Shown here piece after piece: positions 5,128-63,041 of a stretch of DNA of 64,000 nucleotides. A program made the position numbers and the translations under genes. The notes below the pieces were generated by a model, which worked only from the letters and a program-made list of their open reading frames with translations, was not told the DNA's origin and ran no database searches. Source of the DNA: Convolutriloba macropyga (taxonomy: Eukaryota). Every line of letters starts with the position of its first letter. Positions within the stretch are counted from its first letter, which is position 1. The DNA lies in assembly GCF_964194025.1 (NCBI RefSeq), contig NC_134472.1:44206001-44270000 (forward strand), written 5' to 3'.

Positions 5128-5143
5128 CTATCGTTTTATTTTT

Positions 5144-6961: not shown

Positions 6962-6977
6962 TTATCGCTTTATTTTT

Positions 6978-16834: not shown

Positions 16835-16990
16835 ACAAGTTTAACAAGGCTGATATCTTTGCCGTGAGCTTGTTTCATACAAACATTGCAACGTTTAACT
16901 TTTTGTCGAGAAAAGTGAGAACAGAGCAGCGTTGTACTGCTCAGAATTAGGGCTCCATCTGACACTTAAAATTGTTGTATTTTGTCATAG

Positions 16991-30967: not shown

Positions 30968-31649
30968 TAAAGAATTTTTTAGGGTCTTACCAATCTAGTT
31001 TTTCCAATGAGTGGTTTGAAACACTTCATTTTGATTGTGCAGGACTTTTACCAATGATTTGTTTTTAAGAAATGAAAGTTCTGTCTTGAATAGATTCATG
31101 TGACTGTTGGAATATTTTTTGTATTTTTGCATTAATTGGCTTAGTTGGGATTAACCGGATGTAATAACTGAAAATGGTTGAATCACTTTTTAAGTTGTCG
31201 TACAGATTTTTAAAGCTGTAACACCATTTGTGAAAACTATTATCCTTGTGACCACTGGGCTGTCCTTTTTTACCTGGAAGCAAAGTTTTAAAAGCCCATT
31301 TTAGGAGCTAAAGGCGAAAAAAATAGTTCTGGGCTCCTTCTTTGTAAGGTGTAACAATCTCTTGTATGTGTCACATGGCTTTAAAAAAAATGCGTGCATG
31401 ATGAAAGTTAAGTGTTTGCTATGCACAAGAACAAGCTATTACGCTTGGGATGTCCTCTGCAACAAGTTTGCTAGACCAGATTTAATAGTAAAAGAATATA
31501 CGTTACCTAGCTGTGTTTGAACAGACCTCAATGAATTAAACGAAAAAAAAAATCAAAAGAAACTATTGCCTAATACGCAGTTGTGTCAAGTATTGATCTT
31601 GGTGTGATAAGTCTAAAAAATTAAATATATGAAAGCAGTAAATTATTTC

Positions 31650-42480: not shown

Positions 42481-44057
42481 AATATGTTCTGCTATTCACA
42501 AAACTTTGAACCTCGATAACTCCCTTTAAAAAGCGCAAAAGAAAAAACTTTATAATTCCATATTCTAGCTGGATATTCTTTCTAATGCTCATATTCTTTC
42601 TAATGATACCATCACAACTCTCTACGATGTCTATATCGATCGGCCAAAATTGACTGAACCCATTTGAGTATATAGTTCCTCGCCCCCCCCCCCCACCTCT
42701 CTCAAGTGGGTCGGAACAAATACGCAAACAGCAACTGGCATTGATGAAGTTGCAATTAGTGTACTTAAAATATGTAAAATAGTTTGTACTGACATAGCAG
42801 GATTTCGATAGTGGATTAAGATGCTACTTGCTGACAGTGTCATTTTCATTTTACCCAATTCATTAATTGGGGGCTATTTCGTCGTGCGGCTTCAACGTGT
42901 AGCAAATCAACATCTTGACATATTCCTCAGAAAGAGCAACATGTCAGCAGTCACTACTGTTTTTTGGGATGCGAGTCTAATCCAAGTGATCGTTTCCAGT
43001 TAAAGATGTCGAAGCTTTCCTTAACTTATTGATGATAGGCTAGGCGAAGGTATCTAACTGAAGCCATGGCTCTGATCAGAGCTATGTTGCGACTAGGGGT
43101 AGATCAATGAAAACGTAATCATAAAATGTCGCATCGTAATCACAAAAACAATTATTGATTTTCAAGAAATGATTAAATTTTGTGTTTCGAGTAAAACGGC
43201 AAAACTTGTGCTCTAAGTGATAAAATTGTCATGGATAACGTTCACAATTTTGATAACAACTGCCGAAAATTTCTCAATTAATTTGAGTCAATGTAAAAAT
43301 TTATTTTTTGAAATTTTTTCGTAGTTCTATTTTTTCTAAGGTTGACTGAGCTAAGGCTGTTCGTATACAACTTTAATACTTACATGAAAAGTTTCAACTT
43401 GCTATCAACAAACAGATTCATTGAAAACACAACTTTTTAATTTAACTGAAATATTTTAGACGATATTTGAAACTTGTTGGTGTATTATTTAAAATGTGCA
43501 CTTTCACTGTTTAAAACAAGCCCATGTATAAGAGTTCGATTTCAAATTTCGTTCAGATTTTGCAAGCCTAGCACTACGAAAAACTCAACTGCGATATCAT
43601 TCCAAAGGATACATTAACTTATACCTGAAATTATCCGGTAATTTCTTCCGTGCACGAATTATTTTTTTAATCTTGACGAACGGGAAAAATATAGTGCCGT
43701 ATGACATGCATGGAAAAATGGTAACTGCTTAGATCTACTTTATTAAAAATGGTAACTGCTTGGACTAAGTGTCTTTAATTAATTTATATCTTCTTTGACA
43801 TCAAAAATCGTTCCAAACTCACAAAATTTCGAGCAAGCTTTAGCTGTCTACCCACTTTGAAGCCTCAAAAAGATGCTTTGATAGCTTTTTTTAGGAAGAA
43901 ACAATTAAAATATCTTTATTAATGAACATAATCAGTTGCATCAAGGTGAGCAAACTACCTGAAAAAAAATCAACTGTTGAGAATTTTTAAAACCGAATGA
44001 AATGTGATTACTTCGCGGAACCAACACAGAGACGCTCCTATAGCGGCAAACAATTTT

Positions 44058-44288
44058 AGTAGTAATATGTGAGCAAAGCTGGGGTGGGGGCGTAAAAAGA
44101 CGTACCTATGTATAAAGATTACGTATAGCCTATTTTCATCAATTTTCCAAAGACGTCCCTAATAATAGTGAGAACAATAGACCTGTCATCTTATCATAAT
44201 TACCCAGGGGTATTTATCTTAATTACCCCACGGGAAAAGCATCCAGTTCTCCGATCTAATGTATTTCAGGTAATCTCATCTACTTAAT
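44058..44288 (+). repeat. Polinton left terminal inverted repeat
   Basis: Reverse complement of 59598-59836 (e.g. tatagcctattttcatcaattttccaaag, tcatcttatcataattacccaggggta); about 85% identity by eye. Confidence 0.95.
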
Positions 44289-44489
44289 AAAATCCATCTG
44301 CAGATCTTTTATTTTTAATAATTTATTCTCATTTTATTCACTTGCGCAAGGTTTTCACAATTATAACTTTTTTCACTCATTAACGTAAAGAAAGTTCTAT
44401 TTTATCATTTTTCATTGCAATTCAGTCAATGTTTACTAGAATTTACCCGATTTTGTGCTGATATACGCAAATTTTGGCAATTTTACTAT

Positions 44490-44995
44490 TTGTTGCCAAT
44501 AAATACCCAATTCTTATAAAAAAAACCCAATTCTTACCAAACATTACCCAATTATTGACAAAAAATACCCAATTCCTGACGAAATAACACGTAATTTTTG
44601 ACAAAAATACTCAACTCTTGTAAAAATACCCAATTATTGCCAAAAAATACCCAATTCCTACCAAAATTTACGAAAACCACAAAATTTTTGTCAAAAAACC
44701 CAATTATTGCAAAAACTACCCAAATATTGCCAAAAATCACCCAATTATTGCTAAAAAATACCCAATTCGTGGCAAATAACACCCAATTCTTGGCAAAAAT
44801 ACCCAATTCTTCCCAAAAAATACCCAATTCAGGCCAAAAAATGCCCAATTCTTGGCAAAAATAACCCAATTCTTCCCAATTAATACCCAATTCTGAGCAA
44901 AAAATACCCAATTCTTGCCAGGAAAGACCCAATTCGTGGCAAATGATACCCAATTCATGACAAAAATTAATCAATTTGAGCTGAAAATACCCAGT
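44490..44995. repeat. 21-bp minisatellite (consensus ~aaaaatacccaattcttggca), about 23 units, subterminal in the Polinton
   Basis: acccaatt recurs every 21 bp. Confidence 0.92.
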
Positions 44996-45237
44996 TTTAT
45001 CAGCATATTTCGAAAAATTAACCAAAATTCAAAGAGATTTATTCAAATTTTTCCTAAATTTTTCTAAATTACTCGCATTATTCCCACAATTGCTTAATTT
45101 GGGAAATTTTCAAGTTTCAAAATGTTTATTGTAAAAAAATATCACGTGATCCCATTATTTCTGTTAGGAGGTAAATCCTCTCTGCCTTGTGAAGTTTCCT
45201 AATAACAAATCTACTGTGTCATCTGTTAATGACCATA

Positions 45238-46688
45238 AAATTCTCACGTGTTTAGTCAATTACGTCATAATAACTTCACAATTACATCATAACAACGTCC
45301 AAATTACGTCATCCTAACGTCACAATTACGTCATTATGTCGTCATAATTACGTCTTATTTAACAAAGAACTTTTCATTTCCGTTTAATTTCTTTTTCCTG
45401 ATTTACAGAATTTAGTGCAGTTGAGTACAATTATCTTTACAACTTCTGAAAAATTTTTTTTTCATCGCAACTTCCATTTTAACAGTTTTTTATATCTTCT
45501 TTTTCACTTCTAATCTTACATTTTACTTGTAATCCTACTTTCAGAAATGTCGCGAAATTCGGATCAAAAAGAACTTTGCAATGCTTGCGATAAGTTCATT
45601 TTGAAATCCAATATGAGTAGACATCAAAAGCTTCACGCGAGAGCTTGCTCACAATGCTCCCTGTCATTTCCTGACGACGAGAAACTGCAGCATCACATTG
45701 CTTCAACGTTCATTTCAACGTTCTCCACATATTATCAACTTCTTCATCATAAACGAAACAATCACCAGCATTCTGTTCCAGTGGCTTACGATGACGTTGA
45801 CTTAACTATCGATGGAGACTCTCCCGCTCTTCACAGTTAACTTCGAACGGTTCAACACTTTCTGTGAGACTCGATTCTTAAATTGTCCTGAAAAAACTTC
45901 ACAACTTCAAAATAATGGAGATTAAACATGAAACAGTGATAGAAAAATTGGACTTTGTTTGCAACGAGTCACCCATTTCAGCTAAAAGCAATATTTTGTT
46001 TGGATTCATGCTGTAGAGTGTGCAAAATCCAGAGGAATTTCGCTATTGCTACGCAGTGGATAACAACCCCGTATTCTTATATCCTATGGTTCTCTCTGAT
46101 GACTCAGATCCCAATTTTATCAAATCAAAGCTGAGAGAAGAGGAAATTTTACCAAGTCTGATTAATAAACGTCCAGACCCAAAATAGAAATTTTATTGCG
46201 TTACAAATGTCAATTTCTTTGTATTTCTCCTCAGTGGTATTCCTCTGGGCTGTATCATTCAAAATACTCCATTTATTTTCCTCAGGAACGGTTACGTTAA
46301 GTGTTTTGTTTCAGATTGTGAAAAAAACCCAACCAAGACAACCTATGTATATTCCGAGCAATGGCTTACGATTTGTACGGTAGTGTTGAGTTACAACTTA
46401 AAACAATCTAATTGATGCAGACATTCCTCTCAGCGACAAGAAGAGATGACGAAACCTTTCCCGGAATACATGAGGACGATATTCCAGTTCTTGAGGCTTT
46501 AGTTGTCAGAAATATTCAAATTTACTCAATATTTTTTGAGGAAGAAGCTGAAATGTTTGCTGAGGTTTCTCGCCGCTTGTCGATGAAACACACAAAGACA
46601 ACATCGTTACTGAGATATGAAAATCAAATTTGTTGGACGGCAGATATCAAAAAATTCCTCAAAAGGTTCCGGTGCTACATATGCGATC
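45238..46688 (+). pseudogene. Tandem duplicate of the pPolB upstream region and N-terminal part
   Basis: Colinear with 46689-48188. Same MSRNSDQKELCNAC start at 45547 and 47001; junction at tgcgatcaa|attctcacgtg. Confidence 0.95.
45241..45356 (+). promoter_or_regulatory. Phased array of AATTACGTCA (ATF/CRE-like) motifs upstream of pPolB; duplicated at ~46692-46807
   Basis: Motifs at 45258, 45280, 45302, 45324 and 45346 (exact 22-bp period); E-box CACGTG at 45245. A regulatory role is inferred. Confidence 0.5.
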
Positions 46689-47000
46689 AAATTCTCACGT
46701 GTTTAGTCAATTACGTCATAATAACTTCACAATTACATCATAATAACGTCCAAATTACGTCATCCAAACGTCACAATTACGTCATTATGTCGTCATAATT
46801 ACGTCTTATTTAACAAAGAACTTTTCATTTCCGTTTAATTTCTTTTTCCTGATTTACAGAATTTAGTGCAGTTGAGTACAATTATCTTTACAACTTCTGA
46901 CAAATATTTTTTTTTCATCGCAACTTCCATTTTAACAGTTTTTTTATATCCTCTTTTTCACTTCTAATCTTACATTTTACTTGTAATCCTACTTTCAGAA

Positions 47001-50000
47001 ATGTCGCGAAATTCGGATCAAAAAGAACTTTGCAATGCTTGCGATAAGTTCATTTTGAAATCCAATATGAGTAGACATCAAAAGCTTCACGCGAGAGCTT
47101 GCTCACAATGCTCCCTGTCATTTCCTGACGACGAGAAACTGCAGCGTCACATTGCTTCTAAACCTGAACCATCTCCCACTCAAATATAAAGTTTTCATGC
47201 AGCAGCTGCATTTCAACGTTCTCCACATATTATCAACTTCTTCATCATAAACGAAACAATCACCAGCATTCTGTTCCAGTGGCTTACGATGACGTTGACT
47301 TAACTATCGATGGAGACTCTCCCGCTCTTCACAGTTAACTTCGAACGGTTCAACACTTTCTGTGAGACTCGATTCTTAAATTGTCCTGAAAAAACTTCAC
47401 AACTTCAAAATAAAGGAGATTAAACATGAAACAGTGATAGAAAAATTGGATTTTGTTTGAAACGAGTCACCCATTTCAGCTAAAAGCAATATTTTGTTTG
47501 GATTCGTGCTGTAGAGTGTGCAATATCCAGATGAATTTCGCTATTGCTACGCAGTGGATAACAACCCCGTTTTCTTAAATCTTATGGTTCTCTCTGATGA
47601 CTCAGATCTCAATCTTATCAAATCAATGCTGAGAGAAGAGGAAAGTTTACCAAGTCTGATTAATAAACGTCCAGACACAAAATGGAAATTTTATTGCGTT
47701 ACAAATGTCACTTTCTTTGTATTTCTTCTCAGTGCTGTTCCTCTGGGCTGTATCACTCAAATTACTCCATCTATTTTGCTCAGGAACGGTTACGTTAAGT
47801 GTTTTGTTTCGGATTGTGAAAAAAACCCAACCAAGACAACCTATGTATATTCCGTGCATTGGCTTACTATTCGTACGGTAGTGTTGAGTTACAACTTAAA
47901 ACAATCTTATTCATGCAGACATTCTTCTCAGCGACAAGAAGAGATGATGAAACCTTTCCCGGAATACATGAGGACGATATTCCAGTTCTTGAGGCTTTAG
48001 TTGACAGAAATGTTCAAATTTACTCAATATTTATTGAGGAAGACGTTGAAATGTTTGGTGAGCTTTCTCGCCGCTTGTCGATGAAACACACAAAAACAAC
48101 ATCGTTACTGAGATATGAAAATCAAATTTGTTGCACGGCAGACATCAAGAAATTCCTCAAAAAGTTCCGGTGCTACATATGCGATCAAGTTTTCGACAGA
48201 TCCTTCAATCTTATGAGGCACATGCAAAACTGCTCCGAAAACACGCAACACAAATATCCAACAGGAGCCCATCAATTAGCAGAAATTATTTTTGATCGTT
48301 TGGATGACGTTAAAATTAATGTTCCGCAAGAACTTAGTCTTTTTTTTCATCTTATTGTATTTGAGTTTGAGTCAATAACCGTCCCCAACAATACACTCAG
48401 AAACACAGATTTGACTTTGTGGATTGGAAAACATGTTCCCATTAGCGTGTCGATTGCTTCCAACCTACTTGAAGAACCAATATTCATTTGCAACCAAGAT
48501 CCATATCAATTGATTCGTGATTTGGTATCAAGCTCGACTAATATAGCACACTTCTAATGAGGGAAAAACTCAGTGCTTTCGTTTTGGAATTGGGAAAAAA
48601 TTGTTGGGCAGTTCGACAGTTGGTTCCAGTGAAAGACAGGCAGGTACCCACGGGAGCGGAAGACATATTTGACAACGAAGTTGAAACCGAGGAAGAGGAG
48701 AACGAAGACCTTGAAATTCAGAGACTGAGATGCGAGCTCAAGATGTTATCAAATTCGAGACAACACTTTGAGAACTGTTACAGCACCATTCCTGTATTTG
48801 GCTTCAACAGTTGCAGGTACGATTTGAACTTAATCAAAGAGTATCTTCTGCATCATCTCTTAACAGAAAAAACGTTGTTCCCAAAGTGATTCGAATGGAA
48901 AATAAATATATCGGAATGAATTCTCTTGGTCTACAATTTCTGGACATTTTAAACTTCCTGGGAGGAGCAACAACTTTGTAAAACTTCCTAAAAGCTTATG
49001 GGGCCATTGAAGAAAAACCTTTCTTCCCCTGTGAATGGTTCGACAGTATTGAGAAATGGAATGTATCCCAACGGCCTCCAATCAACAGGTTTTCGAGCAA
49101 GTTGAAGAACCAGAACGTGCTTTTGGTCGAGTAGAATAAGTTCGTGGAATTGAAAAACGGTTGAATGGAACAGAATGAAATTTTGAAGAAGTTGAGACTC
49201 AAGAAATCTCCACAAAATGCCGAAGAAAATTACTTGAAGCTCCAAAATATTTGGGAAAGAGAAGGCATGCAGACTTGTCGCGACTTCCTCATGTGGTACA
49301 AAAACAAAGATGTCGGACCTACACTTGATGCAATGACAAAAATGGTTGATTTTTATCACTAAAAACGAGTAGACATGTTAATACTGAGTTACAATCTTCC
49401 CAAATTAGCCATCAGATTTCTCCATTCCTCAACAGATGCTGAGTTTTTTTTCCGATTTTGTGAAAAAGATAAAGACTACGACAACTACATTGGAAAGTGG
49501 CTAACAGGAGGACCCTCAATCATTTTTACACGTTTTGCAAAAGTCGGGGAAACAAAGATAAGAGAGTCCGAAAATGTATACAAATCTATAGTGGGCTTTT
49601 TGCTAGTCAACTTTATCTTTTTTCTATGACAAAAGAGATGCCAACAGGGCCCTATACAAAAAAGGAGTACAATAAGGAGACTGAAAAATTCCAACCGAAG
49701 AGGAGCTGGAGAAGCTACTTTGAGCAGCAGGTCATGGACTACTTTCAACAGATTCATCCCAATTGTAAAATACAAACCCAGTTCACACACAAGAAACAAA
49801 AGAAGATCGGACGTTATTTAGTGGATGGGTTTTGTAACCATTGCAACACAGTTTTTGAAGCGATGGGTTGCTTCTTCCATTTTTGTCAGTGTCAAGAGGA
49901 AAAACAGCTTCTCTTCGAGGATATTGAACGTGGATTGAAGCGAAGAGAACGTGACAATGATAGAAGAGAGTAACTGAAAAGATTGGAGTTAAACGTCGAA

Positions 50001-51286
50001 GAGATCAGTGAGTGTCAATGGAAGAAATGGAAGACAGACAACACAAATGGGGTGAAAGGTTTTCTGAAGTCAAATAATCCCTTCCGACCATCGATGTCCA
50101 AAAAGTTGCTCATTGAGAAAATCAAAAGTTGAGAACTGTTTGGTGTCGTCGATTGCAGTCTTGAAATTCCAGAGGAAATGTATTATTACTATGAAGACTT
50201 CCCTCCAATTGTCAAAAACTGTGAAGTTGGACGAGTTGATATTGGAGAGCACATGAAAGAGTTTGCAGAACGCAACAAGTGATTACTCAGACCCAGAAAA
50301 ATGCTCATGTCCAGTTTCAAGCTTGAACGAGGACCCATTAATAACGCCACTGTTGTTATTCTATCTGGAAAAAGGTTTTATCCTAAAAGACGTTTTTGGT
50401 TTCTGCAATACACTCCCCGACGCTGCTTTGAGACTTTTGTTCAGAATGTTGTTGATGCTGGCCGCGAAGGAGATCAGAGCAAGGAGTCAACAGTCGTTGC
50501 GGAGACAATGAAGTTGATAGTAAACAGTTCGTACGGTTATCAGATCATGGACCGTAGTCGACATACGAATACCAAGTATGTGAAAGGATCTCAAGTGGAC
50601 AAATTTATTAATAATAGATTTTTCAAGACTATGAATGAGCTACCGGAACAAATTTATGAGGTAGAAATGAACAAAACATGTATCGAGCATAAGGAACCAA
50701 TAATTGTTGGCTTTTGTATCCTCCAGTACGCCAAACTTACAATGTTGCAACTTAAATCCAATTTCTTCTCCTCTTTTTGTGATCCAAACAAATAAGAGTT
50801 GATAGACATGGATACTGATAGTCTATACATGGCACTTCGTGAGGACAAAGTTGACGAAATCATCGAAATGCAACCATTGTGACACTGGATAAGACAAAGC
50901 GACTGCAAGATAATTTCGCAGCAAACTCAAGCAGCAACTTTTTCTCACGAGAATGTTGCAACAATCATGCGAACTTTGACAGGAGAACCCCAGGCTTGTT
51001 CAAAGAAGAATTTAGATGCTCAGAAATAATTGCTTTGTGCTCAAAAACTTATTGCTGCTACGATTAGCAATCAGGTACTGTAAAATGGGGCTCAACAAAA
51101 ACTATACCGACGAACCTTTGGCCAAATACAGAGATGTTTTGCTTGATGAGGGGCAAGTATATTCAACGAACCGATGATTTCGCGTAGTCGACAATAAGAA
51201 ATTGTGCAGATATGAGCTCAAAAAAATGGGGCTGTCATACTTTTATTACAAGCGTAAAGTCTGCCAGGACGGAATTCACACTACTC

Positions 51287-51290
<4 letters not shown>
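47001..51290 (+). pseudogene. polB: Protein-primed family B DNA polymerase (pPolB), multiple stops and frameshifts
   Basis: N-terminal C2H2 fingers and DNLCIFRAL. Exonuclease motifs VFEFES, FGFNSCRYDL, WYKNKDV. GGPSIIF; VDGF..FEAMGCFFH insert. Polymerase motifs KLIVNSSYG, DTDSLY, TPGLFKEE, KTYC and DGIHTTPL. Confidence 0.95.

Positions 51291-51344
<54 letters not shown>
51290..51344. repeat. (AT)n microsatellite at the 3' end of pPolB
   Basis: Read directly from the sequence. Confidence 0.95.
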
Positions 51345-51346
<2 letters not shown>

Positions 51347-51557
51347 CTCATCTTCTAAGAGTTTGTAAATTTCCAGCCTTCTTTATTTTTATATCATTTT
51401 TAATTCACTGTTTACCTCACAAAATGTCTTTTAAAAAATCATCGTATAAAATAACTGAATTAGATAAAAAAAACACAATCAAATAATTAAGTACAAAATT
51501 TACAATTCCTTAATACAAAGTTTTGAAAACCATTCGCATCATTTTACGGATTAATGT

Positions 51558-51986
51558 TTAAACATTTATAAAGATTTTGGTTGTCAAAACGTACAAAACA
51601 TCAGCAAAGAACTTCAATATATGAAAATTATTTAAATGTTTAGACGAGACTTGAGAAAGTAACACATGTGCGAAATATATAGCATATAAACCACACAGTT
51701 CTGAATCTTGGAGTTTCTCCTGTACTAATGATCCAAAGTTTGATTTAGTCCTGATGCCATATTTTTCCAAAACTTCTCCCATGGAATCATCGTAGAACAA
51801 CTTTCCATTTTTATTGGCTAGCAAAATCCAGTGGGAGCCCTGTTGAGTAGATGGATCTGTAATGATTATAAAAAACGGGTTTGTAGGTAATTTTCTTGGT
51901 CGAAGATCAGCAGGGAAGGAACCGAGATATTTAAACTTTAGGTGTGGGAACCTGTTGTCAACATGTAAGAAATTTTGTTTATTCAT
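51558..51986 (-). CDS. Polinton adenain-type cysteine maturation protease (PRO)
   Basis: YLGSFPAD, TDPSTQQGSHW (His), FYDDSMG (Asp) and LQDSELCGLYAIYF (Gln/Cys). Confidence 0.9.
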   Translation of the reverse strand: MNKQNFLHVDNRFPHLKFKYLGSFPADLRPRKLPTNPFFIIITDPSTQQGSHWILLANKNGKLFYDDSMGEVLEKYGIRTKSNFGSLVQEKLQDSELCGLYAIYFAHVLLSQVSSKHLNNFHILKFFADVLYVLTTKIFINV

Positions 51987-53240
51987 TTTTGGTAACTAAT
52001 CCCTCTTTGTCAATTGCAATGGAACTTATACGTTCACCGCTAACAAATAAATCTACAGTATTGGTCAATTTGTTAGCAAAGTAGAGCTCTAAACGAATTC
52101 CTGCTCCAACTACATCAGGAAAATGCATTTCGACATTGGCCTCCTGTGTTGAAGTAAGATCGAAAAATAAATGAAAATGGTTTTCAAAATCCTTGTATTG
52201 AATGTTAGGACCGTCATCATCAAACTTGAGTGCTTTAATCGTATCAGCATAAGCCCTCACATGATTTTCCGTTTTCAAGTTAACTATAGTTTGATTCCCA
52301 CGCACAATTTTAACTTCCCGAAGACCAAATTTACGAAAATGGAACAGATTTGTGTTGTAGGGTCCACTGAAATCATTATTCAGATTCATAGCAATATCAA
52401 TCATTCGAATTGGTTTGTTTAAAAATATATTTTCTTGTATAAACTGATTCTGTCCAGCGGGAATGATAAAGGTTTTTGGAAGTTCTTCATTATAGTAAAT
52501 TATGGCTAGATCTCGCAGCAGACTGCTTTTGAAACTTGTCATCCAGTTATCCGAGATTGCTAGCTGTCTAGTAAAAAGGCACGCTTCCAAAATAAAAGCT
52601 TCAGAGTTCAATCCACCAGTATCGATCAAATAGAACGTTGGAGATGACCGGATCAATTTCAGTCTGAGGTTGACATCTGGGAGAAGTAATTTTTCACAAG
52701 CAAATAGACCTATTGCTAACGGACCGTAAAAAGTAAATTCATCTTTATCCTTTTTAAAAACAGTATCTGTGAAAGCTCTTTTTGTAAAATCCTTTGGCTC
52801 AATCTCGTATCGATATCCTTGGCATTGAGATAAGCTTTCCTTTGTTTCTTTTGTGCCTGAAAAATCAGCAGAGACAAAAGCTTGATGGGTATAAAGAGAG
52901 TTGGCACTGTGAACTTGTTCATTGTTACTTCGCAATTAGAGAAAAGAGGATGAAGGACATGTCTTACCAATAATGTTTCTTCGGCATTATATAAACGTGT
53001 TCAATCTCCTTTAATAACCCTTCCTCTGATGAATAATCGAGTAGATCGCAAATCAGTACAAATATTACGATCAGTTTCCATTTGAAATTCGATTGTTGAC
53101 TTGTTTAAGAAGTTCGTTGCAAATATTTGTTGTTCATTGGACCAAAGAATGGGGTCTAAAATTGGAACTCTCCCGCAAAAATCTAGCATAGAGTGAGACA
53201 AGGAATTCTTTTGCTTTTTAGCCGACCGTTTTTTATAATG
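51979..53240 (-). pseudogene. Polinton major capsid protein (double jelly-roll, PY), frameshifted near the 5' end
   Basis: IEF..TDLRSTRLFI, LHPLFSNCEV, KLLLPDVNLRLKLIRS, NLFHFRKF, FFDLT and IRLELYFA; positioned between mCP and PRO. Confidence 0.85.
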
Positions 53241-53254
53241 ATAATTGAGGAAAT

Positions 53255-54030
53255 GATCAAGGTTTTTCTGGAAAAGTAAGGTTAGTTGAACTTGACCAAT
53301 AGGGAAGAAGGGAACAAGGTGTCCAGCTGCGTTTCTTAATTCTACATGCATACTGTGGAAGTTCGATTTGATTACTGTATGGAATCTCAAGTGTTCGAAA
53401 TTGCGATAACTCAGAACTAGAGATCTCTTAAATATCCCATCATTATGGAAATTTCGGTGTTTGAACGGGAAGGAACGTAGAAGAGGACAATTCACATATC
53501 ACCAACTGAATTGGGTTCAACTATATCCAAGTAGAGTAAAACTGTATGTGTTCCAGTAAAATCAAAAGGGAGATCTGCTTTTGCCCAGGACTTGGTATTG
53601 TATGAATGATGCATTTTGAGATCCTCTATTGCAAAAAATTAGTCTTTGACTTTTTTTGCCGATTTTGATAGAAATTGGAGGATGTAAGTTTTTGGGATGT
53701 CGTGCTTTTTTGATTGTATCTGCACGATTATTCGCAAATTCCTCCAAAGAGTTGAAATGCAAAGACATGCTGCATTTGAACTGCTGGTTGAATGGCAAAG
53801 ACATGCTTGAATTTCTCATCATAGTGAAATGTCATCAATCCTCCTTCAATGTTATAACATATACCGGGATACGATACTTCGTTTAAAGCTACTTCCCAAG
53901 ATCCATACAGTTCAATTTTGTCGGGACGAAAATTAGTGAACGAAGCCCTTGTATTTTGAGGATGAACTTGAGAGGAAGCGTTGGATGCCAATTCTAGATG
54001 AAACGAATTTATGATGTTTGACTGTTCTGT
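53255..54030 (-). pseudogene. Polinton minor capsid/penton protein (PX), fragmented
   Basis: FHLELASNASSQVHPQNTRASFTNF...WEVALNEVSYP; CPLLRSF; FHSMHVELRNAAGHLVPF...LTLLF. Confidence 0.85.
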
Positions 54031-54039
54031 GTGACGTTT

Positions 54040-54380
54040 GTTTGGGAAAATGATTCGTCAAGGTTCTTCAGAAGGTCTTTCCTAATTTTTGCCGAACAAA
54101 ACCTTGTCCAGTGTTTTTCCTCTTTTTTATACCTCAACCAACTTGTTTTTGTATTGTCGATTTTGCAGTTTTCTTTACTGCTTTTTTAATTGAAGTCTCT
54201 CTTGATAAAACAGCACCAATTTCGGGAATTTCTGACTCGATTACTTCTCGTCCAATTTTTTTCCTGAAGGTAAAACGTAATTATTGAGAATGGGAAGACT
54301 TTTTCTAGCGACTGTTCTAGCCAAGGCTCCAAAGCCACGCTCCCTCTGACGAGGAACTTCTTTAAATTAAGGTAGATTGT
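54040..54380 (-). pseudogene. Small basic Polinton protein (putative virion core protein)
   Basis: Manual translation across frameshifts: PRQRERGFGALARTVARKSLPIL...IKKAVKR...QKQVG*G, followed by a K/R-rich tail. Confidence 0.55.
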
Positions 54381-54402
54381 AACCGTCCGTTTTCTAGCGC
54401 GT

Positions 54403-55363
54403 CTAATTGAAAAATGATTCTGCAACTTTTGACAATTTTTGTTCGTAAGAGATTCCATCAATGTTTTCACCTTTCTGATCAACAACAAAATATAACGGGA
54501 AGGGTGCTAAAGTGTTTGTTTTTTGAACTAGGAAAATTTCATGTGTATAGTGAGGCTTATATCTTTTTTGAAGTTTGCTCTCTGCTAATGCCAACCTAAC
54601 TTTATCTCCTACTTGAAACCTGGGCTTTGTATTTTTTGTAGCTTCATTCGTTTGTACATGACAGTCCAAAAATCAGCATTCACTAAATCTTTTGGCGCCA
54701 ACCCAATATTACGATTGATTCTTGAGCTAATGACGTCAACAAATATTTGCAGTTCTTTGATGTAGTATATTGTGTCTTTTTCTTCCAGGTAGCAGTAAAT
54801 TAAATTTTTCAGGGTTCGCATAGCTCTTTCGCCAAAAAGCTACTTTGGTTTCACTATCAGTGTGATAATATTTGACTCCCACATCCTCACAGAAATTGGC
54901 CATATCTCCAAAAAACTCTTTTCCTTGATCTAGCCATAATTTTTTCGGGAAATTGAGCCCGCTCTTCTTTGAACACATTTTGGTAAAGGCTGCTTTTACG
55001 GCCTCTGCTCCTTTTCTCCCTAATGGTTCTACTTGCAGGTATCGAGAAAAAACATCTACAGTAACGAGTAAAAATTTGATACCTCGTTTCAATCGTGATA
55101 GTTTATCCATTTTTTGCAAGTTCCAAGCACCAAATCTCATCAATATAGCGAGCATACCCATTTAGTCGCTAAAATTTTCGTCTGATTCCATTGTACATCG
55201 TATAAGAGTCTCTTGGTTGTAACAATTCTGTAATTTTTTCGCGACTGATTCCACTTGCTTTTGTTAGGTTGTTGATAGAACCAAAAGTTGCTGGTCCCCT
55301 CTCCTTATACAATTTCTGCAATTTGATTCTATCTGAAACTGTAATTGAACCAGTCTGAGCCAT
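54403..55363 (-). pseudogene. int: Polinton retroviral-like DDE integrase, frameshifted
   Basis: PATFGSINNL, FLLVTVDVFSRY, LWLDQGKEF, KVAF-ERAMRTLK, IGLAP and PRFQVGDKVRL; no C-terminal chromodomain seen. Confidence 0.92.
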
Positions 55364-55799
55364 ACTGTGTCCTCAAATTGTTATTTTCAACCCGATGTGG
55401 TCTCAGATTCAGAACTTTAAGAATAAAGAAATAGTTTGGATCAACTGGAACGTTTTTCAATTTAATTGAACGGAGGAAAGTTTTTATGTCAACTCCTGTG
55501 TCAACGTTGTCGACAATAATTGTACTGGATAGTGAAATTTTCGACCATATGTTTTCGTATATCTCCCTCAAAGTTTTCAATGTCTCCGGATTGTTCTTAT
55601 AGTGAAATTCCAGGTATGTCTTAAGTTCTTTAGATTGACGATCGGTTTTTTCGGAACTGACATCCTCTTTCGGTTTTTTGACAACTGGGAAAACTATTTC
55701 TTCTTTTCTATAGATCTCGCTGTAGGGTTCCGATAGTTTCCTTTTTCTGGTCTCCCACAGTTCTTTTGGAACAAGAATGTTGAAAATTTGTTCATACAA
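55329..55799 (-). CDS. Polinton hypothetical protein
   Basis: 156-aa ATG ORF tightly packed between neighbouring genes. Confidence 0.6.
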   Translation of the reverse strand: MYEQIFNILVPKELWETRKRKLSEPYSEIYRKEEIVFPVVKKPKEDVSSEKTDRQSKELKTYLEFHYKNNPETLKTLREIYENIWSKISLSSTIIVDNVDTGVDIKTFLRSIKLKNVPVDPNYFFILKVLNLRPHRVENNNLRTQYGSDWFNYSFR

Positions 55800-56080
55800 G
55801 GTTTATATATGTAACTTAATATTGTTATTCCAGCTTTTGAGCTCAATATAAGTCTTCTGGATTTTAGGGTTGTTGCTTTTGATGTGAGCTTTCTAAGTTG
55901 TTTTCGGAAGCGAGCAAACTGATTTCTTCCTACTCCTGTGAGGTTTCCTCCAATCAAGTTTACAGTACACTCACAGAGAAATCTGATGAAATCATTAGGA
56001 CAGGGTAGAAGAAAAGCTGGTTGAAAATTCTTGTTGAGAGTCCGAAAGAGATACAAATTATAATAATTATGTTTGTTTAT
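55770..56080 (-). CDS. Small basic Polinton hypothetical protein (CEC..N..GN motif), boundaries approximate
   Basis: FIRFLCECTVNLIGGNL...FRKQLRKL...SRRLILSS within ORF 55694-56119. Confidence 0.6.
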
Positions 56081-56675
56081 CATTACTATCACTAATATGA
56101 GCACGACTGTTCGGTACAAAGAATTCTGAATGAAATGAAGTTACATCTGAACAATATCTTAACAAATCAGGGTTAGATGGTCTCAAATCGATCAAAAGGT
56201 TCCAATATGGTTCTTGGGTAGCTTCATCATACCACTGTTATAGTTGTTTTCCCAGACCCAGCTGTTTTCCCAATATATCAATTTGCTGCACATCTCGGCG
56301 TGATTTGAACAAAACAATGTGAGTAGTCTGAAGCTCGGCATCACGTCCAGTTTTGTTTTTGTGGAAGAGATTCTGATTGACATATACAAAATTTAAATTT
56401 CGATGTCTACCGGCTGTCGCAATTGCGCTAAATTTTTCCGACTTGGAAAGAATGTCTAATGCGTCATCGAATATAAGTAAATATTTTGTGCTGCCAGCGG
56501 GTAAGTTCTCAATTAATTCAAAGTCAATACCCTGAATGATTTCTATGTCTCCGATTGATTGAATCATTGTGTCGTAAATTGGCTGAAAGTGCTTATAAAA
56601 GTATAAAATTCAATCAAACGAGGGTTTAAAATTTTTCATTTGTAAGCGTTCCTTTGTTAATGTGGTCTTGTTCAT
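56066..56675 (-). pseudogene. Polinton A32/FtsK-like packaging ATPase with Walker A missing
   Basis: Walker B LLIFDD, AGRHRN, VNQNLF, THIVLFKS and PYWNLLIDL. The ATG at 56675 runs MNKTTLTKER-LQMKNFKPSFD with no GxxGxGK. Internal stops present. Confidence 0.88.
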
Positions 56676-56677
56676 TT

Positions 56678-56932
56678 TATGCTCTGGGATTAAGAAGTAT
56701 ATTACCTACAGCATTTGAAAGAATAGCAATCCAAACTGTTCGTTTGTCACAAGTTTTTGCAAAAATAACGTTGATAATTGAAAAAGAGAAGAAGTATTAA
56801 TACAACTAAGCACTGGAATATTGACAAAAAAGCTGTTCTAGAGCAAGCGCGTCCACAAATTTTCCAAGGAGGTGGCTCCTGATTGTTATTATTGAAAATG
56901 AAGTCAGCTGTGTGATTGTTATGATCTGTCAT
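56678..56932 (-). pseudogene. Small two-TM Polinton membrane protein, frameshifted
   Basis: WKICGRACSRTAFLSIFQCLVVLILLLF continues after a frameshift as ...VWIAILSNAVGNILLNP*. Confidence 0.6.
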
Positions 56933-56959
56933 TAGAGTGCGACTGATTTTTGTTCGTTT

Positions 56960-57420
56960 TTAGGAAAAAATGATTCGCACTTTGATTAAAGGCAATCGTG
57001 GTGACAATTTCAGAAAATAACAGTATGCTAGACTTGTTATATGTCCCAAGAAACAAAAGTTTAATTTTGAATTAAGGAATGGAACCATGTAACAGTACCC
57101 GAGACCAATATTTAGATTTGTTTTCAGGAATGCCGTTGCATCATGAAATGTGGCATGTAAACGAAAAACTTTTGACCAATTCAAAAGTTTCTCCAGTTTT
57201 GAATCACCAACTCCTATTAGTTCTCCAAAGGGAACATCTCTGTTGATTTTATCTAGATCTACATTTTGTCAAAATTTCGACAGAGAGCCAAAAAATAATT
57301 TTTCCTTTTTGTATTTCCTACACAAAATTGACAGATTTCCTTTTCGAACTCTACAATTTTCTCAATATTCATGTCAAGCAACTGTTCTGAAAGGATTTAA
57401 TTCGAAAAGTGAATAAATAC
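56960..57420 (-). pseudogene. Polinton accessory gene with G-x-G and H-x-x-x-HD motifs (possible PLA2-like fold)
   Basis: In-frame extension of ORF 56960-57184 reads VPFGELIGVGDSKLEKLLNWSKVFRLHATFHDA..GLGYCY..LGHIT; stop at 57269-57271. Confidence 0.45.
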
Positions 57421-57429
57421 AAATTACTT

Positions 57430-58050
57430 CTATGCACTTTGCGATTTTGTTTGGTTTTTTACTTTGTTCAGCACTGAAATAATTTCATCGCTCATTCGAT
57501 GTAGTTTCTGCAACTCTCCAATTCTGACAGAAAGCAAGCAATTCCTTCTAAAACTGTCTTTTTCAGTCCCTCGTGTGAAGAGCTTGATTGTGAAGTAACA
57601 TCGATTCAGGTCATCTTGGTAAAATGTTCTGGTGACACGTACTTTTTGTCTAGCAGTCTCACTCACCTCCCAGAACACATCGAGTTTCATTTTCTCCTCC
57701 ACATCAATTGGTTGGAAATAAGTTTCGTCAGTAACCAACTTTGCAGTAACTTCTGTGGGTTCAAACTCTAGTGCTTCTTTTAACATCTCAGGTAATTTTT
57801 GGATGAAAATTTTCAATTCCCAGACCGACAGCATCAGAAATTAATGCAGAACAAGTTCGCCTTCGACATTTTCACAAAAGATTTTCAAGTGTGTCCAATT
57901 CGAGCTTGTATTGATAACTTTCTCTGGGATGCTGATTCGAATTTTCCGTTTGCTGTATTCTTGGAAAGTCCAAATGTTGTTGTTTCCTGGGCGATCCTCA
58001 TTTGGTTTGGGTTCAGTGTCCTCAACTTTCACTTTGATATCATTTTCCAA
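57430..58050 (-). pseudogene. Single gene split by one stop; two tandem PC4-like (ssDNA-binding) repeats
   Basis: ORFs 57841-58050 and 57430-57834 are in frame and two codons apart. The two halves share W-x5-R/K-x-K-I/V-R-I/V ... L/I-K-I/L-F ... S-V-x(1-3)-E-L. Confidence 0.55.
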
Positions 58051-58453
58051 AGAAAATATGCTGTCATTATGATAATCGAACTGGGAAGAAGGAATGACTG
58101 GTTTTTCCTCTATGATTTTGTTTGCGGAAGGGGAACGCGTAGGGTTTTTTGCTGTCAGCTGAGACTGAACTTCGATCCATCTGTGGCGTGAGAATGTGAA
58201 GTAAGTAAAAGATGAGTTTTTAAAGCAAAAATAAGAAAAATTGTGTTAAAAGGATGAACTGAATATTAAAATTGAGAACATTTGCGAAAAAAAACTTCGT
58301 AACCAATGAGATCAAGCAAAAGAAGTCGTAGCCAATGAGAATTGAGTGTGCATCATGACGTAATATTTATGTCACTTCTATTTTAAGAAACATCGCTTGA
58401 TTTGACAAATGATGTCAAGTGAGGGAAAGTTTTGCAGAGAAAACAAGCAACTG

Positions 58454-58855
58454 CTAAGACTTATATTGGAGAGCACCTGTAGTTCGAGAATGGAACATTT
58501 TGATGAAGTGGTTGGTTCTGATCATTGTCATTTTCTTGGATAGGCGGAAGAATAGGCGGTCTTGAAAATTGGGTAGAAGTACGAAATTGTTGACGTTATC
58601 TTCGGCTAAGTGGAGGCTATGATGTCTAGCAGCCTCTAAAGTTCTCCACGAATCTTTCGGAGGTGTTGAATTAGTAGTCTGTGTTTTTATTGTTACTCTT
58701 GTGCAATACACCTCAAAGAATGATTCGATGTTGTTATCGGTTACTGTTGTTTTAAATTTCGATTCCTCCTTATTGGGAACGAAATCTAAATCAGAATGAA
58801 GTGTCAAAAGAAAAGATGCTGAAGGAAGTAATGGAAAGGTTGGAGTTTTTTGCAT
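58454..58855 (-). CDS. Polinton hypothetical protein
   Basis: 133-aa ATG ORF with no recognised motif. Confidence 0.4.
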   Translation of the reverse strand: MQKTPTFPLLPSASFLLTLHSDLDFVPNKEESKFKTTVTDNNIESFFEVYCTRVTIKTQTTNSTPPKDSWRTLEAARHHSLHLAEDNVNNFVLLPNFQDRLFFRLSKKMTMIRTNHFIKMFHSRTTGALQYKS

Positions 58856-59530
58856 TTTTTCTAGATTTTTTTTTTAGATTTTGTCTAGATATACTATGTA
58901 AATAACAGCATTTTTGAAAGATTTTTTATTTTAGTAAAACGATATTTTTTTAAAAAAAATTTAAAAACTCACATAAAGAAATCTTCAAAAACAAAAAAAT
59001 TGAATTATAGAAAAAAACATCAAACTATGCATTTTTTGTTAAAAACCTTATGTAATATTTTAGTTAGCGAAACAATATTTTTTTCAAAAAAAAAATTAAT
59101 TAAAAATTTTACATAAAAAACTTCAAAAACGGAAAATTGGAAAAATAGAAAATTTGAAAACATCAGCATTTGCATTTTTGTTTAAAACGTTATGTAAAAA
59201 TCGGCATTTTTGAATCCAATATTGTTTAATTACATTGACCTTTTTTCGAAAAAAAAATTAATTATTATAAAATAATTGCTTTAGAAAATCTTCAAAAACT
59301 AAAAAGCGGAAAAATCCAAAAAATTAAAGTTTCAAAATATGCATTTTTAATCAAAAACCTTATATGAAAGACGACATTTTTCAATCAAAAATTGTTTTAA
59401 GTAAGTTAACATTTTTATGAAAAAAAAATAGTAATACAAAAAAAGTTCGAAAAAAAACTTTTTTTTCAAAAACTGACAAATGCAAAAAAGAAAATATCAA
59501 AATATGCATTTTTTTAATCAAAAAGCTTAT
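58845..59530. repeat. Degenerate A-rich ~145-170 bp subterminal repeats of the Polinton
   Basis: Recurring cttcaaaaac..tgcattttt..aaaaccttat at ~59028, 59171, 59340 and 59505. Confidence 0.7.
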
Positions 59531-59597
59531 GCGCCTGCTGGATCTATCTGTTAAAAAATTATTTACTTGAAAAAAAAGACTTAATCCTTGAAAAAAG

Positions 59598-59836
59598 ATT
59601 AAGTAGTTAGGATTAGCTGAAGTGCAATAGAGCGGAAAACTGGATGCATTTCCCCCGGGGTAATTACGATATTTACCCCTGGGTAATTATGATAAGATGA
59701 AAAGTCTATTGTTCTCACTCTCTTTTTTAGGTACGCCTTTGGAAAATTGATGAAAATAGGCTATAAATAATCTTTATACATATGTACGTCTTTTAACCCC
59801 CCCCCCCCCCCCCTCATCTGCTCGCATATAACTACT
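59598..59836 (-). repeat. Polinton right terminal inverted repeat
   Basis: Reverse complement of 44058-44288; ends ACTACT followed by the TSD AATTTT. Confidence 0.95.
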
Positions 59837-62800
59837 AATTTTTGGAACTCAGGGCTTCATACTTTTCTCATCTGTTATGGTTTCAGTAGATGAGGTCAAT
59901 TGACAATCAGAAACAAAAAATGCAAAAATTTTGCTCTTGTCCTCAGAAAACTGAGACAAAAGCTATACTTCAATGTACCTTGCTATGAAGACTCATTGCC
60001 ATAACTTGATTTTACATTATCTATTATTTCGTGCTCGTTCCCAATGGTGTTCTTGACTGAGCGCATGTAACGACGAAGGCTTTCAATAAAAAAGGGGGAG
60101 TTTTGAAAGTATTTTTTTTCTTTTTTTGTCTGCATTTGTTTTTAGGGTATCAGAAAAATTTGTAAAATTTTTCTCAAAATTTGTACAATTTTTTTGTGTG
60201 GATTGGGACCAGCAATAACCACGCCTACTGATGAATCAGTTTCCAAAACTTAGGAATAATCTTCTATTTATTATGTATAGTTAGTTCTACTTTAACTTCA
60301 TATTCAATTGTCTTTTCTAGATTCCTTGCAAAAATATTCCCATAGCTGCCATTAGTTCAATTTTGTTCACTTTATGTCATCAGTTAGTTTTCTCTGAATT
60401 GGCAACAGAATGAGTTCTTTTAGTTTGCAATTTTTCTGTTTGGTGTATTAGTATGCTGTTGTATTAGTAGTTCGTTGTGTCTAGCATGTATTTTATGAAT
60501 TTAAAGTTATCAACAAATAATAACTGAGAAGTCTTCGCACCTGTTTTGGCGGAAGTATTTGTTCAAGAAGTATAGCTTCATGTCAGATGGTCCTGATTTT
60601 TTCACGAGTAATTTAAAGATAAATGTTAAATTTGCATTGGTGGTTTGCATAGTGGTTTCTACTTTTTATCATTTGTTGTCTGCGTCTGATCTTGTTTGCA
60701 TCTGCAAAATTTTGAATTTGCAATTTTTCCTATAGTTATTCTAGAACTATCATCATCACGAATTCGAAGCTAGAGCAAAGTTTACTCAAATGTTGTATCA
60801 AGCACCTGAGCGTATTAAGAAATTTGAATCGCCCCTAGAAAGTATGAAAATACGACTTTAAACCGCAAGTAATTTCAAAAGAGGATTAAGTTTCTATTTG
60901 AGTTCAGTTCCATTTACATTGACATATTTGATTGATTTTTCTTGAGTGTGAGGATGTCTTCTTTGTTTTATTGTGATTTATTGAGTACGTTTTTCTCAAA
61001 ACTACAGCATTTAATAGCAGCACCACCAAATTGTTCAAAAACTGATGAATGAGGTGGAGAGTAGTGTATACTATGTGCTATCCAACCACCTAAAAAAATT
61101 TTGTTAAAAAACACGTAATTTGCATTATTTTAAATTAAAATTCGGTAGATATTTTTATTTTATCTTTCATTTAGAATCAGGTAATTTAACCGATTTTTTT
61201 CAATTTTTTCTAAAGCGCTTGAATAGCACATAATATACATTACTCTTATGTTGACATAAACTAAAACATCATTTAAAACCAAATTAAATCTGAGAAAATA
61301 TCACAACATATGTCGACCTATACTAAAACTTCATTCATAATCAACTTAAAACTAAAACTTCTTGTCTCACTTGGTGTAGTGGTTAATTCATCGAGTCAAG
61401 TTAAATTGATTTGGCAAACGGAATTTTTGTTTCGTTGCCACTCCAAATTAACGGTGGTAAAAGAGCCTCTAAAACAGATAGTTTTAAACAAAAAGAAACC
61501 AATTTGCGAAAAAAATCTGATAAATTTGGTTCATAAACAGAAAACCCAGGAAAAAAACCGAAAATTTTTATTCTTCATTAAATTTCCTAACAAAATTCTT
61601 TTGAAAATGCTAAAATGCAATTTCCTAATCTTTATTTCGTGAAAAATTTTAATTGCATCTTCTGGTATATCAGTCACCCACCAAGTGATTGACGGAGAAT
61701 TATTAAACGATTAGAAGCTGCAAAGTGGAAAGAATTAAAGACCTGACAAAAATTGTATATTTTTCAGAGTCACGTCTAGCCCTCAAGTGTCAACTTATAT
61801 TAGCAAAACCTACATAATAGCTCATAATTAAGATTTTTCTAAAAAAAATGCAGCCAGGAGCGAAAACTTGGAAGAAATAAACAAAACACAAAAACAGATA
61901 AAATTCATCAAAAGTTTGTTCAAAGTAGCTCATTTCTCTTCAAAAAAAACTCAAATTGAATATCAGTCAACGTGAAAGGTAGCAAAAGCTGCCAGAACAA
62001 CAATTTCAACCACACAACTCCCAAAGGCAACAAATACTTGAAAAAAAATGCAGAAACTGTTAGGAAAGCCTTAAACAATAGCTCAAAATTGAATCTTAAA
62101 GTGTAATATTTACATCAGATAGTCAAAAATGCTTCAAATATTAGTTTGGATATTTGAGTGAATCCTTGACTGAAACAGTAATAATTAAAATTTACAAATT
62201 GTTCTGAAAAAACAGCACGTGATCAAAAAATTTTGCTCGATAGCAAAAAATGTTTCACACAAGCTTTTCTTGCTCTCTTAAAAACGCAGCATGAACACAA
62301 AATTTCTCTTTTCTTTCTGCTCTTTAAATCTTTCAGCTGTTTAACGGAAACACTTAGATTTAACGTGCGGTATTGAATTTTACATCCTGTTTCAAATACA
62401 CTTCAAAAAATACCTGATAAAAAGACGCTCTGCCAGTACTCTCCATCGAGTCGCAAAATGACAGTACACCAATTCAATTCAAATTCTTTGAATTGTACTA
62501 AAAGCTCCAATGTTAACTTAGTTAGTGAAAATATCATTCAGCTTTTCTCGAAAAGTTTCCTTCATGTTAGACGAACCCTTTTGGCAATTATTTCACATTT
62601 CGTAATTTGATTTTATTTTTTGAAATAAGTTATAATGTTTAATGTTCCCCGTACCTAACTCCATTCGTGTTTCAGTACGGGGCAGTTCAGTACTCCCCAG
62701 ACGTTTGTTCTCCTTTCTGAGCCGCCACGACTGTTGCACGTCTGTCTTTGTGCCGTTAATAGACGGTTGAATGCAAATTTCACGCGAAAAAGCGAGTAAA

Positions 62801-62841: not shown

Positions 62842-63041
62842 NNNNNNNNNNNNNNNNNNNNNNNNNNNNNNNNNNNNNNNNNNNNNNNNNNNNNNNNNNN
62901 NNNNNNNNNNNNNNNNNNNNNNNNNNNNNNNNNNNNNNNNNNNNNNNNNNNNNNNNNNNNNNNNNNNNNNNNNNNNNNNNNNNNNNNNNNNNNNNNNNNN
63001 NNNNNNNNNNNNNNNNNNNNNNNNNNNNNNNNNNNNNNNNN
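62842..63041. other. Assembly gap (200 N)
   Basis: Run of exactly 200 n. Confidence 1.

Follow-up and report, generated by a model that had tools for sequence, protein, structure and literature searches.

A decayed Polinton provirus in Convolutriloba macropyga and the palindromic elements that likely parasitise its family

Polintons replicate by protein-primed strand displacement from their terminal inverted repeats (TIRs), and their integrase leaves 6 bp of the target site duplicated (the TSD). Animal Polintons, or Mavericks, with (AGT)2//(ACT)2 ends measure 12.7-24.6 kb (Barreat and Katzourakis 2021, PMC8097293). Compared with the sections of that paper considered here, the element that we describe from the window (the whole analysed stretch of 64,000 nucleotides of Convolutriloba macropyga DNA) is alike in its 6-bp TSD, AGTAGT/ACTACT ends, TIRs and size, and in its pPolB, INT, ATPase, putative PRO, MCP and mCP genes, purifying selection on virion genes and converging modules. 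However, its ATPase lies in the capsid-strand block rather than with pPolB, its accessory genes differ, and a palindromic derivative accompanies it, whereas those sections describe none. Integrase and adenovirus-like virion genes are likewise shared with the adintoviruses, as covered in the portions of Starrett et al. 2021 (PMC8502044) used here; a PLA2-like gene, if real, would fit the Alpha-class virion module; no GasderminX/Cupiennin gene of the Beta class was recognised in the window family. VSR-containing pPolB2 Polintons have been reported from a marine nematode and from molluscs (Jeong et al. 2023, PMC10748475, consulted in part); the likeness here is a nuclease-like insert in pPolB, a weak hint (DUF559/MTES_1575 at E 0.03-0.2).

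The element proper occupies positions 44058-59836, exactly 15,779 bp, from AGTAGT to ACTACT. Sequence comparison places AATTTT at 44052-44057 and a perfect match to it at 59837-59842, so that the length, termini and 6-bp TSD of the original prediction are confirmed, its span of 44052-59842 taking in both TSDs. The left TIR (44058-44288, plus strand), common to coding sister copies and palindromic satellites, and the right TIR (59598-59836, minus strand) align over 231 bases with 32 mismatches (86.1% identity, K2P 0.153), in agreement with a divergence of about 15% first judged by eye. Polinton-type TIRs (AG...CT-type ends) and 6-bp TSDs are present in the window element and its sister copies. 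The junction of left flank and TIR was bridged without differences by contigs from three of four DNA runs (all of a single study that may be the source), and among the short read contigs listed none joined the flanks across the whole element, so no empty site was seen. Rfam gave no matches between 43500 and 60500. The first inspection had overlooked a plus-strand array of about 22 21-bp copies at the left end (44490-44990), also found in every satellite arm, a degenerate array of about 160-bp units at the right end (58890-59530, plus strand), expanded in satellites, and a 1.46-kb tandem duplication of the 5' part of pPolB (45235-46696 and 46686-48194, plus strand, 96.4% identical). The duplication is private to the window copy: of 11 sister copies, 10 have the region once and the other gave no match.

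Mapping natural ORFs of sister copies onto the window yielded a gene order that bears out the proposed plus-strand pPolB converging on a minus-strand block. The broken pPolB (45547-51291) is recognised from the sister ORF and from motifs, with N-terminal C2H2 fingers and with Exo and Pol A-C motifs. In transcription order, the minus strand carries a 193-aa hypothetical gene (58300-58873, broken, partly deleted, 3' end approximate); genes for a protein of 249 aa in which a two-fold internal repeat is weakly visible (57433-58180, broken; hhalign P 0.005), a 150-aa protein (56963-57423, broken) and an 84-aa membrane protein (56680-56932, broken); an A32-like packaging ATPase of 246 aa (56004-56745, broken, ends approximate); conserved hypothetical genes of 106 aa (55775-56092) and 156 aa (55332-55802, broken), both delimited by sister ORFs; the retroviral-like INT of 314 aa (54421-55363, broken); a core-like protein of 112 aa (54059-54400, broken); the mCP, or penton, of 266 aa (53265-54062, broken, start approximate); the MCP of 412 aa (51985-53213, broken); and PRO, a putative adenain/Ulp1-like cysteine protease of 131 aa (51594-51986), free of stops and frameshifts.

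Most of the proposed labels withstood scrutiny by fold, Pfam, motif, hydropathy or composition. The predicted MCP model, built from a database protein (P0001) that is 82-90% identical to the window pieces, is a double jelly-roll (pLDDT 82) matching an iridovirus MCP (Foldseek E 2e-16) as well as the Mavirus and Sputnik MCPs; the mCP model, from a sister-copy ORF (pLDDT 70), is a penton-like single jelly-roll whose best match is the Mavirus penton (E 7e-10), followed by adenovirus pentons. The window ORF of INT matches rve (E 4e-9), and the ATPase matches Pox_A32 both as a window fragment (E 1e-5) and as a sister ORF (E 7e-9). Hydropathy identifies the 84-aa protein as transmembrane, and the core-like protein is basic (28 K/R against 6 D/E). 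In the sister ORF, pPolB displays Exo I-III and Pol A-C motifs by sequence pattern, five of them visible in the window; vOTU-like motifs are likewise assigned by pattern. PF03175 does not match the pPolB of the window family; relatives at 43-45% identity score E 1e-8 to 1e-9. The Alpha adintovirus PolB is of the OTU and pfam03175 type; with vOTU-like motifs and no PF03175 match, the pPolB of the window family may be closer to the divergent Beta PolB in the available portions of PMC8502044. For PRO, sub-threshold Pfam matches (Peptidase_C48 E 0.003, C5 E 0.03) and a fitting position adjoining MCP lend the label weak support. The PC4-like and PLA2-like names, in contrast, found no support in Pfam, the ESM Atlas or PDB sequence profiles and stand as unproven, motif-level guesses. 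The 249-aa and 150-aa genes retrieved nothing from these sources (best ESM Atlas score 0.76-0.77, below lead level); the Gly-rich and His/Asp motifs of the 150-aa protein are conserved across eight aligned ORFs with no profile match, and its PLA2-like character is presumed from a motif.

As proposed, the Polinton in the window is complete and encodes a capsid; this copy is old and dead, 11 of its 13 genes being broken. The prediction of an old, dead element holds for this copy and not for the lineage, because the TIRs of nine two-ended sister copies are 93.9-99.7% identical. A genome search for further copies returned many: 112 of 125 scored MCP matches reach at least 67% identity, some being fragments of one copy. 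The 11 copies sampled came mostly from the upper ranks of this match list, so that the sample is biased to young copies; nine have both ends and measure 14.3-15.8 kb, eight of these with perfect TSDs. The family is not old and, with over 100 copies in the genome, has spread recently. The proposal of an undescribed lineage is plausible on sequence grounds: we found no named close protein homologue for the proteins of the window family, MCP relatives being unnamed ENA proteins at 82-90% identity and the next full-length MCPs standing at 48-55%. The MCP alignment gave 140 pattern matches in IMG/VR, none confirmed.

In the TIR tree, the two TIRs of the window do not group as sisters, as would be expected if the element were a chimera of two copies and its TIR divergence no date. 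However, the perfect TSD, end-to-end collinearity with a sister copy, an interior uniformly 84-86% identical to all 11 sampled copies, and near-neutral window-only substitutions (dN/dS 0.37-1.77) speak against such a fusion; the TSD and the uniform divergence largely refute it, and we regard it as very improbable.

In the family, dN/dS for changes common to several copies is 0.05 for MCP, 0.11 for mCP and ATPase, 0.20 for PRO and INT, and 0.11-0.22 for pPolB. These ratios indicate purifying selection on the capsid genes, and capsid particles have likely been the family's means of spread.

Many mirror-image elements of 12-20 kb that bear the ends of the window family are present in the genome as well. 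Among 18 TIR-bounded loci analysed, 16 are palindromes (52-100% self-complementary), and one found separately brings the set to 17, of 11.6-28.8 kb, without polymerase, integrase or capsid genes. Both TIR clades include coding copies and satellites. Having helper termini and TSDs and lacking the core genes, the palindromes have the properties of a non-autonomous Polinton derivative; most likely, they are fold-back satellites of the window's family, and they likely parasitise its enzymes.

Long inverted repeats assemble poorly, and the satellite interiors are known from the assembly alone, as would suit chimeras of assembly or amplification. Yet the main arm blocks are 91-99% identical and never 100%, the arms differ by 1-9% and in array copy number, the flanks, for the most part, are not palindromic and carry direct TSDs, and the centres are related between elements. 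An artefact accordingly seems hardly credible. Palindromes formed in the chromosome after insertion, by inverted duplication or recombination, and never mobile as such, would account for two loci with inverted rather than direct flanks and for local duplications inside copies, the window's included. We consider this improbable given perfect direct 6-bp TSDs at both termini in 14 of 17 satellites, at unrelated sites on different contigs (one further palindrome has a TSD mismatch), and an internal breakpoint and arm anatomy common to 16.

Those 16 of 17 satellites have one origin: each retains a remnant of the 3' tip of pPolB that ends at one common point, and several independent palindrome origins are rejected on that account. 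The remnant matches the sampled coding copy at no more than 73-84% identity, which makes the parent of the satellites an older relative rather than one of the sampled helpers. The orientation of the ~160-bp array is opposite to that expected from a simple deletion.

The satellites also keep an orphan gene and a gene order that the helper family has lost and co-resident Polintons retain. Seven such elements, with MCPs 45-55% identical to that of the window family, have the same core and most accessory genes. All seven carry a DEDD-like gene, have the order INT-mCP-core-MCP and place pPolB in divergent orientation to the virion block; the six with a TIR pair span 17.6-19.2 kb. The window family, in contrast, is convergent and shorter, lacks the DEDD-like and orphan genes and has the order INT-core-mCP-MCP. 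Orphan-gene homologues (30-47% identity) occur in five of the seven, on the pPolB strand adjoining a terminus. The matches listed define at least 104 orphan loci, 66 of the 104 with one scored match; 36 of the 38 with multiple matches converge head-to-head, and none diverge. Against 1.84 billion representatives, the orphan ORF gave 74 matches, mostly close fragments, and no family. Over its N-terminal 170 codons, changes common to several satellites show a dN/dS of 0.22 (44 S/42 N, p 5e-11), single-arm changes 0.73; the C-terminal half evolves neutrally, changes common only to both arms of one element include stops, and just 4 of 25 arm frames found are open over at least 265 aa.

Taken together, these results make it probable that the window holds a decayed Polinton provirus of a family exceeding 100 copies, likely capsid-spread, and that palindromes with the same termini likely borrow its polymerase and integrase. 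A family ancestor would have undergone internal deletions that spared one terminus, an accessory gene and the pPolB 3' tip; the retained arm would then have doubled by fold-back into a molecule with two identical origins, copied and integrated by helper enzymes. For 28 of 30 arms, the closest relative is the partner arm within its own element, and arms may become alike with each mobilisation or close to it; gene conversion after insertion could alternatively produce this likeness. Helper capsids may also package the satellites; the hint comes from their size, and the size match is weak evidence because 16 of 17 share one founder, two measure 26-29 kb, and one locus, with an inner span of just 3.5 kb, is probably a ~9-kb element.

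No virion, RNA or extrachromosomal form of the helper or the satellites came to light. This, the spread of sizes, from ~9 to 29 kb, and the near-monophyly of the satellites would also suit a purely intracellular transposon with vestigial capsid genes, the palindromes being ordinary non-autonomous foldback elements sized by their founder. We find this rather unlikely, since purifying selection on MCP, mCP, ATPase and PRO is at least as strong as that on pPolB and INT, the independently derived palindrome N18 likewise measures 12.3 kb, and the exact TIR-motif matches (the first 100 of 213 considered) include no TIRs in opposed orientation less than 11.5 kb apart. Beyond the capsid-spread helper with its enzyme-borrowing palindromes, we tentatively raise a bolder possibility, to which we give less than even weight: a snap-back satellite, long-lived and integrating in the germline, in which a deletion derivative has doubled into a giant hairpin. 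Its length would be kept near that of the helper by the need for capsid packaging; it would exchange termini with helper subfamilies, or co-evolve with theirs, and carry its own accessory protein from the helper's ancestor. Such a satellite, if real, would preserve a fossil record of a dsDNA virus's defective-interfering genomes and argue indirectly that animal Polintons make virions.

On its own, the window copy is ordinary, another decayed Polinton; the novelty lies in the system of helper and palindromes. Particle formation and replication of Polintons in animals are long-standing open questions, and recent helper insertions together with a large dependent palindromic family make them testable by observation. 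The satellites, moreover, preserve a gene and gene order lost from the helper lineage, and dozens or more inverted repeats of 12-20 kb may affect host genome stability and assembly quality.

Palindromic mini-replicons of phi29 reportedly offer a snap-back-type parallel, and Kapitonov and Jurka 2006 may list non-autonomous Polintons. Butterfly polintons have gene-containing TIRs of ~2 kb, according to the portion of 10.1101/2025.02.07.637071 considered. In the literature on non-autonomous, foldback and snap-back forms of Polintons and Mavericks, as represented by the sections used, including those of PMC6431247, PMC3014272, PMC11662393, PMC3671162, 10.1101/2024.01.15.575659 and 10.1101/2025.02.07.637071, we found no giant palindromic Polinton. 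With snap-back and copy-back defective viral genomes, such as AAV snapback genomes (PMC8235507), and with Foldback-type transposons (Galileo, Tetris), taken together and in the partial accounts used, the satellites share a near-total inverted repeat, two identical termini, helper dependence and internal tandem arrays. In contrast to these, they are heritable, stand integrated between Polinton TSDs, lie near helper-genome length and bear a gene under past selection.

The Polinton/Maverick copy in the window runs from AGTAGT at 44058 to ACTACT at 59836 (15,779 bp in total), is flanked at both ends by an AATTTT target duplication and qualifies as a Polinton. Mapping the natural ORFs of sister copies from the same genome onto the window reproduced the gene order of the original prediction, and its proposed check on the capsid proteins was borne out in predicted structures. 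The model of the major capsid protein (MCP; pLDDT 82), built from a database protein 82-90% identical to the window MCP pieces, matches the double jelly-roll capsids of iridovirus, PBCV-1, Mavirus and Sputnik (best E 2e-16), and that of the minor capsid protein (mCP; pLDDT 70), built from a sister-copy ORF, resembles the Mavirus penton (E 7e-10) as well as adenovirus pentons. The integrase (INT) and ATPase passed Pfam thresholds; the protease (PRO) fell below threshold in the Pfam search. In pPolB, pattern matching picks out exonuclease and polymerase motifs, and an insert gives a weak nuclease-like match. Among the smaller ORFs, that of 84 aa contains a transmembrane stretch, that of 112 aa is basic, that of 150 aa maintains Gly-rich and His/Asp motifs across families and that of 249 aa shows weak internal repetition (hhalign P 0.005); the PLA2-like and PC4-like labels given to the last two found no backing, as no search recovered PLA2 or PC4.

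This copy's terminal inverted repeats (TIRs) share 231 aligned bases with 32 mismatches (86.1% identity, K2P 0.153), in agreement with the divergence of about 15% estimated by eye. A 21-bp array lies internal to the left TIR and a degenerate ~160-bp array internal to the right one. The 5' part of pPolB is tandemly duplicated (45235-46696 and 46686-48194; 1409 matches, 53 mismatches) in the window copy only, the probe having given a single match in each of 10 sister copies and none in the eleventh. Because the duplication is 3.6% diverged, compared to 14% for the TIRs, it probably post-dates the insertion. The left junction is spanned, with 0 differences, by contigs from three of four public DNA runs, all from a single study that is possibly the source of the assembly. 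Stops or frameshifts interrupt 11 of the 13 window genes, each compared with single sister ORFs; PRO and a 106-aa ORF are free of both. A (TA)n microsatellite expansion (51289-51346) abuts the 3' end of pPolB, and an assembly gap of 200 N (62842-63041) lies 3 kb off the copy.

A search of the host genome (1.18 Gb, 4694 contigs) yielded 125 scored MCP matches, 112 at no less than 67% identity and 13 at 45-53%. We sampled 11 coding copies, 10 from the upper ranks of this list and one from another genome search, and each of them shares 84-86% identity with the window copy. Both ends were in range for nine, which measure 14.3-15.8 kb, with perfect target site duplications (TSDs) in eight and TIR identities of 93.9-99.7%. 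For substitutions common to several copies, dN/dS was 0.05 in MCP, 0.11 in both mCP and ATPase, 0.20 in both PRO and INT, 0.11-0.22 in pPolB and 0.09-0.37 in accessory genes, and private and window-only changes were closer to neutral (0.34-1.77). Taken together, the little-diverged sister TIRs, the low shared dN/dS and the near-neutral window-only changes show that the lineage was recently mobile with its virion module under selection, and that the window copy is an ordinary, dead one that decayed in place. The "old, dead copy" originally proposed is upheld for this copy, but the age does not extend to the lineage, given its sister TIRs. The close database matches (82-96%) are unnamed ENA proteins. 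They probably derive from the same host, as other resident families likewise have MCPs to which ENA proteins correspond almost exactly; after these come full-length MCPs at 48-55% identity. In one acoel, Mavericks make up 4.5% of the genome (PMC6451197).

The termini of this family also bound giant palindromes without polymerase, integrase or capsid genes, here called satellites. Only one of the first nine TIR-bounded pairs taken was a coding copy. Of the 213 exact TIR-motif matches, the first 100 provided 11 further opposed pairs without an MCP match, and the 10 analysed comprised eight palindromes and two decayed coding copies; one additional palindrome was reached via the accessory gene described below, and two more loci were covered in part only. 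The 17 palindromes seen whole (analysed loci L001-L010, L013-L020, L041-L046, L049-L054, L057-L060 and L076-L077) span 11.6-28.8 kb (median 15.9 kb); 14 have perfect, direct 6-bp TSDs, one has a TSD with a single mismatch and two have inverted flanks. The inverted host flanks at L003-L004 and L041-L042 may reflect larger inverted duplications or assembly problems. Each arm consists of the TIR, the 21-bp array, an "orphan" gene absent from the window's family, a short pPolB 3' remnant, the ~160-bp array and a near-perfect hairpin centre; among 11 satellites measured, nine have an unpaired gap of 0-155 bases. The interior sequence and the pPolB breakpoint are common to 16 of the 17. The exception, the 12.3-kb palindrome N18 (L059-L060, G000:C7:53.18 Mb), has an interior unlike the other 16, with duplications close to the TIRs along with a DEDD-like ORF and a remnant near the PLA2-like region, and likely arose independently. 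Coding copies and satellites are both present in each of two TIR clades. A packaging limit possibly restricts satellite size, although the satellites' shared ancestry and a single short locus confound this reading. Two satellites (L018-L020 and L015-L017) are enlarged to 26-29 kb; in one enlarged satellite the 21-bp array reaches ~600 copies, an expansion that could seed satellite DNA.

Elsewhere in the window, the minus strand holds, at 308-2501 and 13806-14832, a LINE-type reverse transcriptase (RVT_1, E 4e-29) as well as fragments resembling a second non-LTR element (no Pfam match), and host prolyl 4-hydroxylase alpha-like exons (TPR_P4H, 2OG-FeII_Oxy_3) lie at 15598-17508 on the plus strand. 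The hydroxylase exons and the LINE reverse transcriptase mark the host as an animal. Two large degenerate tandem arrays (2800-8200 and 31600-39400; units of ~0.8-1.9 kb) have opposite AT skew, and ~290 bp of the former matches an insertion within one satellite.

The orphan gene, assigned to no protein family by family and sequence database searches, gave, in a search of the genome, 150 scored matches among 1041 candidates, at 104 loci; at 36 of the 38 multi-match loci the copies converge, with inner spans of 3.5-25 kb (median 7.6 kb). Over its first 170 codons, dN/dS is 0.22 for changes common to several satellites compared to 0.73 for single-arm changes; most copies are broken, and the C-terminal half is neutral. 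The DEDD-like ORF of two satellites is 74-89% identical to the version in two distant families (resident Polintons with MCPs 45-55% identical to that of the window's family), which points to its capture from a different Polinton family.

Replication of Polintons by TP-primed strand displacement and their rve integration are established (10.1101/2024.03.18.585575). Read from the orphan end, distant families present the TIR, the orphan, the virion block in antisense and pPolB in sense, and a satellite arm is the same minus the middle. In the origin we propose, a deleted arm arose in an ancestor of the window's family that still had the old arrangement, and a fold-back would have doubled this arm, leaving two identical origins usable by the enzymes of helpers, the coding copies. 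One simple deletion does not account for how the ~160-bp array is oriented. In the orphan region, the closest relative of 28 of 30 arms is their own partner, and this likeness suggests that one arm was copied or repaired from the other around mobilisation, although gene conversion after insertion may have produced it as well.

In the published literature searched we found no giant palindromic Polinton, and the palindromic satellite system is worth follow-up. In all seven distant-family elements examined (L061-L074 and L081-L087), pPolB diverges from the virion block, and a DEDD-like gene and the order INT-mCP-core-MCP are present. The orphan lies at the PRO end, directed inward, in five, and the six with a TIR pair measure 17.6-19.2 kb. 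Additional unannotated ORFs separate pPolB from the virion block in two. By contrast, the window's family has convergent modules, measures ~15 kb, lacks the DEDD-like and orphan genes and has core and mCP swapped. This comparison indicates that its gene order is derived, and comparable gene rearrangement is known among Mavericks (PMC8097293).
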